The notes below the pieces were generated by a model that ran no database searches, was not told the origin of the DNA, and worked only from the letters and a program-made list of their open reading frames with translations. DNA of 64,000 nucleotides from Octopus sinensis (taxonomy: Eukaryota). Each line of letters begins with the position of its first letter. The first letter of the stretch is position 1. This document shows, one piece after another, positions 5,593 through 34,700 of this stretch. Position numbers and translations under genes: made by a program. The DNA is taken from assembly GCF_006345805.1 (NCBI RefSeq), contig NC_043009.1, positions 50,530,001 through 50,594,000 on the forward strand, in the 5' to 3' direction.

Positions 5593-7213
5593 TTGTGTGT
5601 GTTAACAATGAAAAATCATAAGTAATAACAGCATTGTTTCTTATCTTAGTTATATACAAATATAAGAGAGTCTTTGAATTGTCTTACAGAAATGAAATGA
5701 AATGCAGCTTCAAGCATTTTGTCTACACGTCTAGCACTTGAGAGTCAATCTTCATATCTCTTAGACAGTATTCCATTTCCGTAGGGAAATTCAAAACCCT
5801 TTTATACCTGTATATAAACCAAGAAATGATACTTTCATTGCTTCTGACTAATTTTTCTTTTCATTATTAATAATAATATATTATTCTGAACACTACCAAG
5901 AACTTTTCAGTTTTGTATATATGTGTGTGTGTGTAGGGGGGGGGTGTATATGTGTGGGTGGATGTGAATGTGTGTATGCAGTGTACACATGTTGGAAGGG
6001 AAACATATTCAGACTGATAGTTTTGAATTTCATATTAACAGTTTCCTATTTCTCCATAACACTATTATCTTCACAATATAAATTATAGAATTTGGAACAA
6101 TAATAGAACAGAATTTTCACCGAGATGGTCAATTCTATTCTACACTTTGAAATTCACCTGCTAACCAAAAATGATAAAATACTTTTCTGTTGCTTCTTTT
6201 TTTTTGTTTTTGTTTCTAATTTCCTTAGAAGCTAGTTATCATAACAGTAAGCAATACAACTGAATATAACAGAGAGAGAGACAAAAGAAAGCAGAAAGAG
6301 ATCATAGCTAAAGAAACGGATCATAGCTAAAATTACTGAATAACAAAAATATATACTTTAAAATTTCAATCTCATATTCATGTCATAATTATAATTAAAA
6401 TATACTTTATGGCACATTTCACTGAACCTAGATTTTATTTGTTATTTATTTATTTGTTTGCTTTTTTACTTGATATAAAAGTAATTTTGAATATATCAGT
6501 CAATAAGAAAATAATAGTTATGTTTTTGTTGTATAAATGCTTTTAAAATGATTTTCAGTTTTATCTCAGAATATAAGCATCTGAGTAAATTTTAAGACAG
6601 AATCAGTAGTAACAGTAGATTCAGACTTGTACAGTACTAACAATAAATTTCTCTCTATTTTCACCACTTGTGGTTGCAGCTCATTGAGGAAAAAACATGT
6701 TTAAAAATAGAAAACAAAAGAATCAAGGAAAAATTTATTATAGTACATACATGGTATTTGTAACATTTTATATACATTAATGGTAGGAGGGGAAAAAATC
6801 AGGTTACATACAGTATTTTATATAAACAAGATATATTGAATGTTGACAACTGGAGGTTGTTTTAAGACAACTTCAGGCAACATGAAAGAAGATAAATTGT
6901 GTGTTAAGCATCAAAATCTTACAAAAATCAATCAGATTCAAAATAGAGAATATATATCTTTTCAATCCCAGTCTTTCGTTTATCAATAGTTTAGCACTTC
7001 TAACAATACAATACCTTGCAATTTAAAGTTAAAATGTCGATAATTGTCAGACATTTTTATTATCTGTGCTAATTTTATGGCATTACTACCTAAAACATTA
7101 GTATGTTTATTAAGAAATTAAAAGAAGTGAAAGTCATTAAGTTATACAATTAAAGTTTGAAAATAATAGTCTTTTTATGAGGAGAAAACAAAATAATCTG
7201 TATATATATATAT

Positions 7214-7332
7214 GCTTACGGCCATATCACGTTGAAAGCACCGGTTCTTGTCTGATCACCGAAGTTAAGTAACATCGAGCCTAGTTAGTACTTAAATGGG
7301 TGACCGCTTGGGAAAACTAGGTGCTGTAAGCA
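7214..7332 (+). pseudogene. 5S rRNA-derived sequence (full length, mutated), head of a putative 5S-SINE
   Basis: GCTTACGGCCATATCACGTTGAAAGCACCGG...GATCACCGAAGTTAAG...GTTAGTACTT..ATGGGTGACCGCTTGGGAAAACTAGGTGCTGTAAGCA is recognisably metazoan 5S; helix I GCTTAC/GTAAGC pairs; CpG-type decay (CTTGTCTGA, AACATCG); isolated copy with no T-run directly after. Confidence 0.9.
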
Positions 7333-7403
7333 TTCCTCATTCAGCGGTGGTGCCCCAGCATGGCCGTGGCCTTCGGGCTAAAACATTTTTAAGGATTTAA
7401 GGA
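7214..7403 (+). mobile_element. Putative 5S rRNA-derived SINE (SINE3) with LINE-type tail
   Basis: 5S followed by GGTGGTGCCCCAGCATGGCCG-hairpin-AAAC and (TTTAAGGA)2; tail matches SINE A and the LINE end at 28780-28842. Confidence 0.65.
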
Positions 7404-7511
7404 TATAGCAAATCAGAGAGACTGTATATTGCCACTCAATCAACTTGAAATGGTCATCATATACTCTCTGAAATCACACCCTACTATTTTTAAAATAAAG
7501 GGCTACATTAA

Positions 7512-11177: not shown

Positions 11178-11915
11178 TCTTCCACTTCCAAGACAATGAA
11201 TACTTCATAGCTCCTCACACACACACACACACAAAACTTCCACCACTAAAACAATGATTACTCCACAACCATACATATAATTTCCACCTTCAAAACAAAA
11301 GTTACCCTACACATACACACACACAGGCGCAGGAGTGGCTGTGTGGTAAGTAGCTTGCTAACCAACCACATGGTTCCGGGTTCAGTCCCACTGCGTGGCA
11401 TCTTGGGCAAGTGTCTTCTGCTATAGCCCCGGGCCGACCAATGCCTTGTCAGTGGATTTGGTAGACGGAAACTGAAAGAAGCCTGTCATATATATATATA
11501 CATGTGTGTGTTTGTGTGTCTGTGTTTGTCCCCCTAGCATTGCTTGACAACCGATGCTGGTGTGTTTATGTCCCCGTTACTTAGCGGTTCAGCAAAAGAG
11601 ACCGATGAATAAGTACTGTGCTTACAAAAGAATAAGTCCCGGAGTCGATTTGCTCGACTAAAGGCGGTGCTCCAGCATGGCCGCAGTCAAATGACTGAAA
11701 CAAGTAATAGAGTAAAAGAGTAAAAGAGAGTATAGACACACACACAAACACAACTTCCACTTCCAAAACAACGAATACTCCACAACTAGACACAAAACTT
11801 CTACCTGCAAAAAATACTCTATAACCAACCATTCACATAACTTCCATTACAAGAACAATGATTACAACTACATAAACACACACACATACACACACATGCA
11901 CAAAACTTCCACTTT
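11178..11915. repeat. Degenerate ~44-bp minisatellite (about 7 units) split by a SINE A
   Basis: Recurring AACTTCCAC...AAAACAATGA(A/T)TACTCCACAAC units on both sides of the SINE. Confidence 0.7.
11326..11732 (+). mobile_element. SINE A, full length
   Basis: GGCGCAGGAGTGGCTGTGTGG ... GACTGAAACAAG (AGTAAAAG)n. Confidence 0.95.
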
Positions 11916-28779: not shown

Positions 28780-29035
28780 ATTTTATTTTATTATTTTATC
28801 TAGTTTCAGCTCACGAGCTGTGGCCCTGCTGGGGCACCGCCATTTGGTGTTGCTACATGATTTTACTTCACGAATGCGTTTTAGCAATTGCCATTTGGTG
28901 CATGAGAGAGTTCGATGCAGCTGCCCTCATCTGCACCTCCTGCCGTGAAGTTGGTTCATCTGGGACACCTGACAGGAAGAGATCCAGTTTTATTTTAAAG
29001 ACATCTGCATCCACCCCATGTAGGTCTCTCAGGTT
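28780..29035 (-). mobile_element. LINE 3' end (CR1-group-like ORF2 C-terminus, short 3' UTR, A-rich tail)
   Basis: Open frame 29035-28868: NLRDLHGVDADVFKIKLDLFLSGVPDEPTSRQEVQMRAAASNSLMHQMAIAKTHS*; the FK..LD.FL..PDEP...RAA.SNSL motif is typical of invertebrate non-LTR ORF2 ends; followed by GGCGGTGCCCCAGCAGGGCCACAGCTCGTGAGCTGAAAC. Confidence 0.8.
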
Positions 29036-29491
29036 AGTATTTTATGCATAAATAGCAGAGATACTAAAGAATAATATGATTTGCGTTTATTACACCACAG
29101 GCCTTGTTTGAAATTCTGTGGAACTAATATTAATCCATTTTACCTATTACATATGTCTTAAAATTGGCCTATTTGTGAAAATAGATTAAAATGATTGCCT
29201 ACAAGGATGGAGATTAGTTCTCAGCACCCAAAATTAGTTGGAAAGCTTGCATAGGCTATTCAACTAATTCTGAAAGAGCATTAAAAATTGTGAAGTTCTT
29301 CTTTAACTCAAAAATTCACATTTAACAGTAAACTGACATTGTTTACAGAGCCATTGACTTTAATTAAATTTGCAACATTCAATCACATTACTAATTTATT
29401 TGGAAGAAAAATTGACATTGCAAATGTTTTTGAATGCTTTAAGATTGAGTCAAGTCTTGAATAGTAAACGTCTACAAATTCATTGACATAC

Positions 29492-29890: not shown

Positions 29891-30087
29891 AAAAAAAATA
29901 CAACGGAGCTGTGGGCCATCAATTGATATTAGTTAACATCTGAGGTGCATGCACATGCATGCCGATATGTGTCTAGGTACCTGCTCTGCTAAATGTATTA
30001 CAAAAAATATTGGTTCAATTCTCTTCTTTTTAATGTTTTTGGCCCTCAAACTCTAACATGTGTGTGTGCACACGCACACACAATATA

Positions 30088-30317
30088 ATTTCTTTACTAC
30101 CCACAAGAGGCTAAACACAGAGAGGACAAACAAGGACAGACAAACGGATTAAGTCGATTACATCGACCCCAGTGCGTAACTGGTACTTAATATATCGACC
30201 CCGAAAGGATGAAAGGCAAAGTCAACCTTGGCGGAATTTGAACTCAGAACGTAACGGCAGACGAAATATGGCTACGCATTTCGCCCGGCATGCTAACGTT
30301 TCTGCCAGCTTGCCGCC
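30088..30317 (-). mobile_element. SINE B1 with 12-bp TSD
   Basis: CACACACAATAT at 30075-30086 and 30323-30334. Confidence 0.92.
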
Positions 30318-31461
30318 TTACACACACACAATATTTGTAGTATTCAGCATTAAAATGATTGTTGAATATTAAGTGAAAAGTTAGGCATAAATATGGAACT
30401 AAGTGCAAGTGTGTGTATGTGTAGCTTTATTGTGTCAATCACACATCATTTTTATTTTACTAATGCCTTCCAACTAGTAGAATAGTTTACCTTTTTCTGT
30501 TTCTTTTATTTATTTAAAGTAAAAATAACACTTTATTGTTCAATGCAAAACATAAGTAGAAAGTTCAAATCAAATTAAAATTTAGTATATTTAGTATACA
30601 TTTCCCATCATCTGTATTAACCTTTAATGTAAAAATAAAATGAAGGTTCAAATCTAATTAAAGTTAACTATTCTATATTAATTTTTTCTCCATTATCTGT
30701 TGATGCACACTTTGATATCTTTACATCTCATCAATACAGCTCATGGACAATTATATGTGTAATATTGATGAATTTTCAATTAAATTAAATTTTCCAAAAT
30801 CATGTATTAAACAGATGTATAGAAGAATTGAAATTATATAGAGAAACAAATATGTCTACCAAGGAAAGTCTACAGTAAATTGGTGAAGTTTTGTTTGGTA
30901 AAGACAGAACCTCAACATCTATAGTGTCGTAGAATTATTTTACTATGTAACCTGTTCCCATCTTCAAGTGAAAATCTGTTTATAGTCAGAAATTAACTTT
31001 CTTGGTGAAAAACATTTATATATTTCATGACAGGTTGACTCAGTTCTACATTACATTATTACATTTCTTTGAAATTCTTTCTACTCTGATTCCGTATATC
31101 TAATGATGTGGACATTTTCTAAGCCAATGAAACTAAGCAATGTGGAGTAAATTAACCTGTTATTAAATAAATACATCTCCAACTAAATGTGTTAAGTGTA
31201 ACTCTTTCATTTGTTCACACATACACACAAAATTGTCTGGTTAGCTGCATTTGGGTGTGCATTGAATACAAATGAATAAATACTTAAACATATATCAATT
31301 TCTTCTGCAGAATTAACATAACCTCAAGGGCTGACAATTGATTAAGATCTTTCTGGACGCTTTCTACTCTATAAACAAGAATCTGACAAATATGAAAATT
31401 CTTCACACCAAAATTTAGCACCTTATCTGTAAAACATGCACACACATACATGCATATGTGT

Positions 31462-31494
<33 letters not shown>

Positions 31495-31501
31495 CAATAT
31501 A

Positions 31502-31731
31502 ATTTCTTTACTACCCACAAGAGGCTAAACACAGAGAGGACAAACAAGGACAGACAAACGGATTAAGTCGATTACATCGACCCCAGTGCGTAACTGGTAC
31601 TTAATATATCGACCCCGAAAGGATGAAAGGCAAAGTCAACCTTGGCGGAATTTGAACTCAGAACGTAACGGCAGACGAAATATGGCTACGCATTTCGCCC
31701 GGCATGCTAACGTTTCTGCCAGCTTGCCGCC
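31502..31731 (-). mobile_element. SINE B1 (duplicate of 30088-30317)
   Basis: Identical copy inside the tandem duplication. Confidence 0.92.
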
Positions 31732-34700
31732 TTACACACACACAATATTTGTAGTATTCAGCATTAAAATGATTGTTGAATATTAAGTGAAAAGTTAGGC
31801 ATAAATATGGAACTAAGTGCAAGTGTGTGTATGTGTAGCTTTATTGTGTCAATCACACATCGTTTTTATTTTACTAATGCCTTCCAACTAGTAGAATAGT
31901 TTACCTTTTTCTGTTTCTTTTATTCATTTAAAGTAAAAATAACACTTTATTGTTCAATGCAAAACATAAGTAGAAAGTTCAAATCAAATTAAAATTTAGT
32001 ATATTTAGTATACATTTCCCATCATCTGTATTAACCTTTAATGTAAAAATAAAATGAAGGTTCAAATCTAATTAAAGTTAACTATTCTATATTAATTTTT
32101 TCTCCATTATCTGTTGATGCACACTTTGATATCTTTACATCTCATCAATACAGCTCATGGACAATTATATGTGTAATATTGAGGAATTTTCAATTAGATT
32201 AAATTTTCCAAAATCATGTATTAAACAGATGTATAGAAGAATTGAAATTATATAGAGAAACAAATATGTCTACCAAGGAAAGTCTACAGTAAATTGGTGA
32301 AGTTTTGTTTGGTAAAGACAGAACCTCAACATCTATAGTGTCGTAGAATTATTTTACTATGTAACCTGTTCCCATCTTCAAGTGAAAATCTGTTTATAGT
32401 CAGAAATTAACTTTCTTGGTGAAAAACATTTATATATTTCATGACAGGTTGACTCAGTTCTACATTACATTATTACATTTCTTTGAAATTCTTTCTACTC
32501 TGATTCCGTATATCTAATGATGTGGACATTTTCTAAGCCAATGAAACTAAGCAATGTGGAGTAAATTAACCTGTTATTAAATAAATACATCTCCAACTAA
32601 ATGTGTTAAGTGTAACTCTTTCATTTGTTCACACATACACACAAAATTGTCTGGTTAGCTGCATTTGGGTGTGCATTGAATACAAATGAATAAATACTTA
32701 AACATATATCAATTTCTTCTGCAGAATTAACATAACCTCAAGGGCTGACAATTGATTAAGATCTTTCTGGACGCTTTCTACTCTATTAAACAAGAATCTG
32801 ACAAATATGAAAATTCTTCACACCAAAATTTAGCACCTTATCTGTAAAACATGCACACACATACATGCATATGCGTACACACACACACACACACACGCAC
32901 ACACACAAAACCTCTTCTTCCTTTCTTTCTTGTTATCTCTCTCTGGTTGACCAGTTTCACAACCAACCACTTACAAAACCAACAATCCGAGTTGGACAAG
33001 TAATCTTTCTTGAATATTCCTGAATGGGCAGGTGATGCCAGTCAGGTGTACTAATCAGAGATGCTCTTGATAAGTGGATTAAGAAGCTTAGAGAAATGGG
33101 TAGTGGGTTGCTAGAATGCAAAAGTCTTCCAGCTTAGCTCCTATTGGACCCTGAGAGAACAGCATTAGGAAATCAAAACTGGCAGCACACAATTTTGCCA
33201 ACATTTTTAAGAACTAGAAAAATAAACAAATATATGCACAAGAAAATTAACTGTCACTTTTTCTTTTCCCCAGCACCCTTCATGGAAAGAGACAGAATTA
33301 TAGTGAGAATATGGTATAGTGCAACATTTTTTTTTTTACACATTTTGTAATCCAATCAGTTGTAACAAGTGACAGCATAAAATTAATTATTCAAAAATGC
33401 AACAATTACCATTTGTTAAATTCTGTCTTGCTAATAGAATTTCACAGTTGCATAGCAACAGAAAGAGAAACAACCATTCTTTAAAATATATTTATGTGTG
33501 TTTGTTTTTCTGTGAATGAGTGAGTGTCTGTGCGTTTCAGTAAAAAGTTGCATAGATATTAAAACACAAACAGAAAAAAGATGCGTTTGTATGTATGTGC
33601 ATGCATGTGTGTGCGTGCGCACGTGAACGCGTGCATGTGTGCATACGTGCTTGCACACATGTGTGCTCTCTCTCTCTCGCACACAATTTTCTGTTGTTGA
33701 CTATTATGAAAACACAGCCGTCTTACTCTATATTCTTCAACCAGTAATCAATTTACCTGGGAACTAAAAACGTTTCTTCTGTGACCAATGTGTTTGTTCT
33801 ATTTGTTTATTTTTGCATGTGTTTCTGATAATGTTTTCACATGCCAACAAATGAAATTTTGTTTTAGACTACTAACAAAACAGATACAGCCACAATGCTC
33901 ATGTAAATGTGCACACACACACACACACACACGCGCGTGTGTGTGTAACTTGATAAGTATCACAATGACAAAATTAGTTAATAAAATATATCTGTTGAGA
34001 CCTTGAGACTATTCAGTTGTTATTCCAAGTAAAGTTACAAAGAAATTTAATCCTTTAGAAATGAGTACTTAGTGCTCTATGTTTGGGGCAATGTACAGAA
34101 AAATGGCGCAAAAATCTATTTGAAAGTCGAACAACATCACTTTACCTGTTGATAGGCATAGAATAAGAAAACAAAATAATGAAATTAAAGATGAAATAAG
34201 AACCAAATCTGTGCAATATTTATATATGTTAACCAGTTCCTATCATTGTCTTCTAAAATGCAAATATTTTCTATCAAGAGTTCACTTAGTTCTTATTCAG
34301 AGATTTTTCTGCTAATATTTACCACCAGCAACACCACAAAAATAATGGTTTACAATCTTTTCTCCACTCATCTTCCAGTTTTCAGCCAACAGCTAAGCAA
34401 TTCATTATAAAAATAGGGAGAAATGAGCCACCTGGTTTAGTGATGCCAACCCCCTTATTAAGTTGCAGATAACATTTTTTTAATCCAAGACAAAGAGTTC
34501 CAGTTTGCTGTGAAGACTAATCAAGGCTATCTCTTGAGAGTACATGGCAAACCGCACATGAAAGAAATACCAAGTAATTAGCAAAAATCAACTGATAGGG
34601 TCAACCGTTTAGAACAAGAGTAAGGGTATATAAGATTTCAAGTGCCCTCTTAGATAATGGCAAAAGAAGCAAAATCAAAACAAAAAGGAAAAAAAAAGAA

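Follow-up and report, generated by a model that had tools for sequence, protein, structure and literature searches.

The window analysed here, a stretch of 64,000 nt from Octopus sinensis (NC_043009.1, positions 50,530,001 to 50,594,000), holds at 7214-7403 a complete 5S rRNA sequence that runs into the 3' tail of a long interspersed nuclear element (LINE). The initial annotation had proposed it as a candidate SINE3 family, i.e., short interspersed nuclear elements (SINEs) with a 5S-derived head. We find instead that the element is a chimeric retrocopy, one of many independent fusions, and not a self-copying SINE family. The anatomy of the junctions makes it highly probable that such copies arise repeatedly, as independent chimeras, when reverse transcriptase (RT) jumps from a minimal tail RNA to the 3' ends of small RNAs.

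The element is a 5S head on a minimal LINE tail

The features of the window that matter here are the following.

7201-7213, no strand: (TA)n target site, left side; empty orthologous sites run through a short AT stretch
7214-7332, plus strand: full-length 5S rRNA copy, beginning at +1 and without the upstream element of the genes
7333-7341, plus strand: 3' trailer of a pre-5S transcript, recurring at loci L027, L260 and L011
7342-7403, plus strand: minimal 3' tail of a young LINE family with apurinic/apyrimidinic endonuclease (APE) and RT, class 1, matching the ends of LINE copies
7344-7367, plus strand: tail stem-loop, from folding and covariation
7368-7379, plus strand: tail hairpin, from folding
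7386-7390, plus strand: T5 run, from the sequence
7388-7403, plus strand: terminal repeat (TTTAAGGA)2, from the sequence
11325-11730, plus strand: comparator, full-length tRNA SINE A
28798-29060, minus strand: comparator, 3' end of a class 2 LINE that shares the core but has a different hairpin and did not donate this tail

The head matches Rfam family RF00001 over model positions 1-120 with 104.7 bits, and it differs from a true gene at five positions, one of which is a known gene allele. In true 5S genes there is a TAGAATAAA element some 25-35 nt upstream, along with an oligo-T terminator and one of many differing short trailers; the first two, which are the hallmarks of a 5S rDNA gene, are both present in the true cluster and both missing from the window copy. 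As the initial annotation had noted, 13 nt separate the 5S end from GGTGGTG at 7346, but this spacing is no separate module. Positions 7342-7345 belong to the LINE tail and 7336-7341 are compatible with the LINE and the 5S trailer alike, a 6-nt microhomology that places the join between 7335 and 7342. The same trailer stands ahead of another tail in L027 and L260 and, with one extra T, precedes the same class-1 tail in L011. To the right of the element, a short AT duplication resumes at 7403-7407.

A genome search with the whole element gave 1,494 candidates, 40 of which were scored. Some 26 of these, dispersed over many contigs, align along almost the full element at 85-95%; the other scored loci match positions 1-152 only, that is, the 5S and the core with another hairpin. 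The earlier observation is therefore real: the full 5S, the T5, the (TTTAAGGA)2 and the LINE-type tail are all confirmed, and with about 26 loci at hand their adjacency is not due to chance. What was described, a retroposed, dispersed and multicopy 5S head on a LINE-type tail, stands as such.

The tail belongs to a young LINE family

A 20-nt tail core is common to the window element, the SINE A copies and the LINE end at about 28822-28841. This alignment had been reported before and is correct, but the LINE at 28798-29060 is not the donor. An exact 32-nt pattern of the class-1 tail matches the genome 1,429 times (control 0), and seven of the first 30 matches share about 1.5 kb or more of upstream sequence at 94-98%. 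RT and AP-endonuclease domains (PF14529, PF03372 and PF00078) lie upstream of the tail in L268-L270. On the strength of these matches, we assign the window tail to a third young LINE family, class 1, whose 3' end it represents. LINE ends thus outnumber the class-1 chimeras about 50-fold (1,429 tail matches vs 26 chimeras); the tail of the class-2 LINE has 4,966 exact matches. We place the class-1 tail donor in the CR1/L2 group; this label, like that of the RTE-type partners below, is drawn from protein motifs and not from an RT tree. LINEs with this type of tail favour AT-rich microsatellites as targets.

The distinct hairpin and terminal repeat had been the chief argument for a genuine SINE family. 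Since both the hairpin and the (TTTAAGGA)n end belong to the 3' end of the class-1 LINE, that argument falls.

Each junction is different

Were the element part of a genuine SINE3 family, RNA polymerase III (Pol III) would transcribe one master 5S-plus-tail gene, or a few of them, and a partner LINE would copy them. Much in the window element has this appearance: it has a 5S head with an intact internal Pol III promoter region and a LINE-derived tail, it is dispersed and non-tandem, some 26 copies at 85-95% share one tail whose start is constant, head type is associated with partner, and A102 is common to most chimeras. However, the junction is never shared. All 26 class-1 5S chimeras have different junctions (26/26, a lower bound on their number, the ranking passing to other tails after about 26). 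The linkers are trailers of different 5S genes, the same heads stand on many different partners, the same tail is found behind U6 and 7SL, and the T5 run lies before the terminal repeat.

We widened the comparison to 105 chimeras, i.e., dispersed 5S copies with an assignable partner, leaving out 14 further copies without one. Among them, 100 combinations of linker and partner are distinct. The five repeats comprise a tandem duplicate and four cases set apart by their hairpin or terminal repeat. A common origin would be marked by a shared junction and by diagnostic changes absent from the cellular gene; here, the 26 junctions are distinct and the seemingly diagnostic changes occur in a gene-like locus, L204. 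SINEBase asks for at least 100 copies with the same modules, while 26, a lower bound, were found with the class-1 tail. Moreover, an approximately 50-fold excess of LINE ends is what is expected of independent chimeras, according to the accessible text of the study that separates families from sums of chimeras (PMC4494074). By that test, and by the SINE definition as given in the accessible part of PMC3531059, the window element fails as a SINE. The SINE3 reading is largely refuted for the class-1 tail, and we regard it as very improbable. The dispersed copies that the initial annotation had anticipated were thus found, but not the junction they were to have in common. A template-switch chimera, which it had named as the finding that would speak against a family, is what holds, not as a one-off but as a recurrent event genome-wide.

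Counting 5S-to-tail junctions by pattern gave 138 matches (control 15); an unrelated repeat dominated these, and the figure does not enter our counts.

The linkers are trailers of true 5S genes

The true 5S genes form a cluster of mixed orientations at G000:C4:131.78-131.98 Mb (L151-L170), of which 200 kb were examined directly and the remaining 30 kb through search loci. Comparison with this cluster shows that the tail is not the normal 5S spacer, a possibility raised earlier. The linkers of 59 of the 105 chimeras start with at least 7 bases of a true-gene trailer, ten trailers being represented, whereas the shuffle control gave a mean of 1.3 and a maximum of 5. One trailer type, with four linked head variants, was found about 45 times. 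All four variants (40T, 61G, 73C and 112A) are present in L204 (G000:C5:50223185), a gene-like locus outside the cluster with an upstream element and a long T run, and the L204-type trailer is cut at differing lengths in different copies. For a lone variant 5S gene, a match to about 45 chimeras is a large share; L204 may be germline-expressed or poorly processed.

The head is full length in 44/105 chimeras, and a T4 run is kept in 30/105 linkers. Half of the full-length chimeras (22/44) have an extra G ahead of +1, usually as ATG (e.g., L003, L004, L027 and L029), compared with 1/80 genes. This G is likely an untemplated base added at run-off.

The join is fixed at the tail stem-loop

Across six tail families, the match to the parent LINE upstream of the core measures 0-10 nt in 80/80 5S/U6 chimeras and 3-6 nt in 69 of them. 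The parent LINEs differ in sequence upstream of the core, yet the position of the join is constant. Variable 5' truncation of the LINE part, as in U6/L1 chimeras, is not seen, CR1-type tails joining within a 10-nt window; RTE-type partners vary in join position.

The same boundary is visible in the LINE ends themselves. The 70 class-1 ends examined on contig C1 fall into two groups: 29 break off within the -6 to +6 stretch around the core start and 41 extend to at least 70 nt, with no case at 11-60 nt; the pattern used is blind to shorter products. Thirty class-2 ends divide into nine minimal ones, none at 11-60 nt, 16 longer ones and five that are the amplified tRNA SINE. The LINE part of this SINE, which has a class-2 tail, starts at the same boundary as in the chimeras.

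The tail folds into two hairpins, and a few bases separate the join from the first stem, on its 5' side. In an alignment of 11 tails, 93% of cells pair and compensatory changes are found at 6/13 pairs, exceeding what shuffled and slid controls give, although the structure was drawn from the same sequences and relatedness by itself can outdo shuffles of this sort. All of these tails have an A at position -3.

Two other ways of setting the boundary were considered. For a self-cleaving ribozyme, the window gave no Rfam match and no hammerhead or HDV core by eye. A boundary set by the stop codon is disfavoured because the core lies 15, 16 and 26 nt past the stop codon in classes 1, 4 and 2, respectively (read by eye), and because the noncoding SINE A tail has the same boundary.

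Most dispersed small-RNA copies are chimeras

Exact 5S 3' ends number 361 in the genome, with 114 inside the cluster and about 247 outside it. As an unbiased sample we took the first 59 non-cluster ends, which gave 58 distinct ones (a tandem pair was merged and a near-identical pair kept). As many as 55/58 are joined to a retroelement: 33 to minimal CR1-type tails, 18 to the 5' end of a tRNA SINE, two to minimal RTE-type tails and two to the interior of other repeats. Three have no assigned partner, and one of these shows the first bases of a tail.

Other small RNAs behave likewise to differing extents. Chimeras account for 18/22 non-cluster U6 loci, two of them with the class-1 tail (44 of 48 matches examined). 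The 25 matches to 7SL comprise 10 gene-like copies and 15 chimeras, three of which have the class-1 tail. For U2, one of the 30 matches examined, out of 48, is chimeric and has a related tail, the others being gene-like. Full tRNAs with their trailers stand at the front of two three-part loci, in the order tRNA-Gln, 5S, SINE A start (L111, 1500-1710) and tRNA-Gly, SINE head, tail (L387, 1500-1700, minus strand). These are apparently serial (double) jumps, the alternative being separate insertions. When mature tRNA fused to the class-2 tail was sought, two matches came up, both SINE-like heads, but this search was narrow and the two tRNA cases came by other routes. Rfam gave no RNA upstream of solo tails in 14 loci.

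Several arrangements at these loci deserve mention. L386 and L387 each combine a tRNA-SINE head that ends in a T run with the minimal tail of a different family, which looks like tail swapping in progress. T-ended sequences that Rfam did not name precede class-2 minimal tails at L024:1330-1440 and L228:1950-2070; these may be either small RNAs not yet annotated or simply target DNA. A-rich runs of up to about 30 nt, often interspersed with G, separate the small RNA from its partner in the 7SL loci L380, L378, L383, L375 and L384 and also in L035, L112, L178 and L284. We take these to be reminiscent of post-transcriptional mixed A/G tails captured in DNA. The 5' end, an internal site and the tail type of SINE A are each joined to small RNAs elsewhere in the genome. 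The internal site, at about 247 of 407 (window ~11570), forms a second preferred boundary, to which U6 and 7SL were joined at nearly one position in four independent events (L223, L225, L284 and L374).

Head and tail were inserted together

Contigs X10 and X13, from organisms D and E, cross the orthologous site with neither head nor tail, through a short AT run, whereas contigs X2 and X5, from organisms B and C, pass from the left flank into the 5S head. Head and tail were inserted in one event. For the class-1 tail, summed depth in B and C exceeds that in D and E by a factor of hundreds, which suggests that expansion of the class-1 LINE family followed that split. That the same chimeras occur in D and E is hinted at only by low-agreement loose ends, and these are not counted as evidence.

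These data bear on a scenario of two events at the DNA level, in which dispersed 5S copies came first and LINE or SINE pieces were later inserted behind the T-rich trailer as a preferred target. The preference of the tail LINEs for AT-rich microsatellites and the 6-nt microhomology at the window junction would fit it. Against it, the empty sites lack both parts, partnerless dispersed 5S copies are nearly absent (3/58 unassigned), heads start at +1 or within the RNA with no gene flank, and no tail stands behind any of 82 gene-like copies among the sequences listed. We consider this scenario the most remote of those weighed.

A probable template jump from a minimal tail RNA

Taken with the fixed join and the gene-derived linkers, these features are highly likely to reflect template jumping. 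Target-primed reverse transcription would start at the terminal repeat, and the enzyme would copy about the last 60 bases of the LINE RNA, halting just past the recognition stem-loop, where 0-2 bases would often be added. The halted product would then either close, giving a tail-only insertion, or continue on an available RNA 3' end, be it that of 5S, U6, 7SL, U2 or a pre-tRNA. For the window element the acceptor would have been an unprocessed 5S rRNA. The jump would precede insertion of the product.

The main competitor at the RNA level is ligation of a small RNA to a LINE tail fragment by an RtcB-like activity, the fusion then being retrotransposed, as with human U6/L1. Such ligation has been shown for U6/L1 (PMC6789731, as far as its accessible text goes), and U6 chimeras are common in this genome. 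An endonuclease cut leaving a 5'-OH could also fix the 5' end of the tail, for which the A at -3, invariant in 11 tails, might be cited. Yet pre-5S and U2 heads normally have no cyclic phosphate (PMC6789731, same extent). The partners of 18/58 dispersed 5S ends are intact Pol III SINE 5' ends, expected to be triphosphorylated, many junctions have extra bases, and three-part chimeras occur. The 3' end of 7SL is a 3'-OH, which also counts against ligation. At the 36 junctions where the trailer is known, 12 are flush, 14 have 1-2 extra bases, five show microhomology and five have more extra bases, partly through mutation. The joins to intact SINE 5' ends and the extra bases fit jumping better because RtcB needs a cyclic phosphate and a 5'-OH (PMC6789731, same extent). 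Ligation therefore seems improbable to us.

Several points weigh against the jumping model. Jumping and ligation are told apart by junction anatomy in genomic sequence alone. For the exact trailer of the window copy no source gene turned up; its three exact matches are all chimeras. The classification covers 105 of the roughly 250 dispersed 5S copies. In this sample, which tail-led searches have biased, head type goes with partner class (chi-square p=0.005); age matching could explain this. The 102C allele, present in 72/82 genes, is missing from 100/105 chimeras (5/105 carry it), a possible shared diagnostic. Some true genes carry A102, and we read the contrast as probably an age effect of recent turnover in the gene cluster, such that the chimeras may record older rDNA states. 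Target duplications in 26 copies average 4.6 vs 3.1 nt (p=0.001), a signal driven by TA microsatellites; at the window site the duplication length is ambiguous because it lies inside one. Finally, the folding energy of the tail does not differ significantly from that of shuffles (z -0.47).

As to what fixes the stop, we see about an even chance that it is the 5' terminus of a short RNA of the tail, a remnant of 5'-to-3' decay that halted at a protein-bound stem. The enzyme might alternatively release after copying its own binding site, a possibility that we place somewhat below even. An enzyme paused by structure should stop 3' of the stem and not 5' of it, which slightly favours the decay-fragment origin, given the properties of XRN-type nucleases.

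Whatever its origin, the window copy is probably dead because it has no upstream element and its T5 would stop Pol III before the terminal repeat. This repeat is reportedly needed for priming, from work on eel LINEs.

Relation to known systems

Chimeras of U6 with L2 and Mon-1 in platypus, and of U6 with L1, L2, RTEX and AnolisSINE2 in lizard, are the closest parallel (PMC4476161). In the accessible text of that report, a small RNA likewise stands 5' of, and in the same orientation as, a short segment derived from a stringent LINE or from its SINE; target duplications are short, solo or poly(A) pseudogenes are absent and template switching is invoked (PMC4476161). The 40 U6 cases there are nearly all 5' truncated, and the same text does not mention a fixed join (PMC4476161). 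Here, by contrast, 5S dominates, with 44/105 heads full length and gene trailers retained; 7SL, U2 and tRNA are also involved, and one fixed join holds for six tail families.

Human chimeras of small RNAs with LINE-1 are described as unique events without self-propagation, 5S making up 10.5% of 253 candidates, in what is accessible of PMC11838501 and PMC6789731. In human 5S/L1, the 5S is often antisense and truncated and the L1 part varies in length (PMC11838501), and human U6/L1 arises by RtcB ligation (PMC6789731), to the same extent of text. The octopus chimeras differ in that the 5S is sense with an intact 3' end and the LINE part is minimal and fixed. They share with this class a small RNA placed 5' of a retroelement end in the same orientation, unique joins and an excess of LINE ends.

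SINE3 families, namely zebrafish SINE3, HaSE3, MEG, Ped-1 and OS, resemble the window element in their 5S head with internal promoter, LINE-derived tail and dispersal, and the accessible list of 5S SINEs covers reptiles, insects, fish and mammals only, with no mollusc (PMC10946416). Those families were amplified from master copies, unlike the window element, which has neither a shared junction nor a non-gene diagnostic change (criteria in the accessible part of PMC3531059).

A retropseudogene of 5S rRNA that resembles a SINE, made by template jumping of a LINE enzyme, has reportedly been described in Dictyostelium, to go by the title of Szafranski et al. 2004 alone. That title speaks of one retropseudogene, whereas here there are many copies, several RNAs and several LINE families. 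In vitro, the enzyme of another LINE clade jumps from the 5' end of its template to the 3' end of another RNA with untemplated bases; here, jumping is deduced from genomic fossils of APE-type LINEs. A literature search that had subscription papers, supplements and the Repbase, Dfam and SINEBase banks outside its scope found nothing on cephalopod 5S chimeras or on a fixed tail-stem join; such elements may already be catalogued in any of those sources. What is new relative to known small-RNA/LINE chimeras is the unusually fixed minimal tail and the very high penetrance among dispersed small-RNA copies.

Implications for the birth of SINEs

Template switching is the proposed route to SINE modules, in the accessible text of PMC4824008 and PMC4758252. 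The exact LINE recognition tail of SINEs is usually ascribed to such a switch, which is assumed, and capture of a LINE tail by a small RNA would be the birth step of a new SINE. This genome shows the tail-capture step many times, and since its fixed boundary is common to the chimeras and the amplified tRNA SINE, the template-switch model becomes directly testable.

We propose, tentatively and at a little less than even chance, that a discrete tail RNA of 55-60 nt, its 5' end set by the enzyme-bound stem-loop, serves as a portable adaptor, accounting for about 40% of the insertions of the family, for the jumps to small RNAs and for the trimmed SINE tails. If so, the genome would be a SINE nursery with proto-SINE1, proto-SINE2 and proto-SINE3 elements, and would also preserve as fossils the 3' ends that germline RNAs had, post-transcriptional A/G tails among them. 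Through the captured trailers, copies can be traced back to individual source genes, and former 5S alleles and RNA 3' ends are kept. Independent chimeras would likely be merged into a false SINE3 family by automatic repeat annotation.

Other observations

About 20 variant U6 genes lie in tandem at G000:C1:141.83-141.96 Mb (L229-L248); they are 95-96% identical to the main U6 and differ at the 5' end. The window itself contains at 30069-32907 a tandem duplication of 1,425 bp at 99.4% identity, which is either a recent duplication or an assembly artefact.
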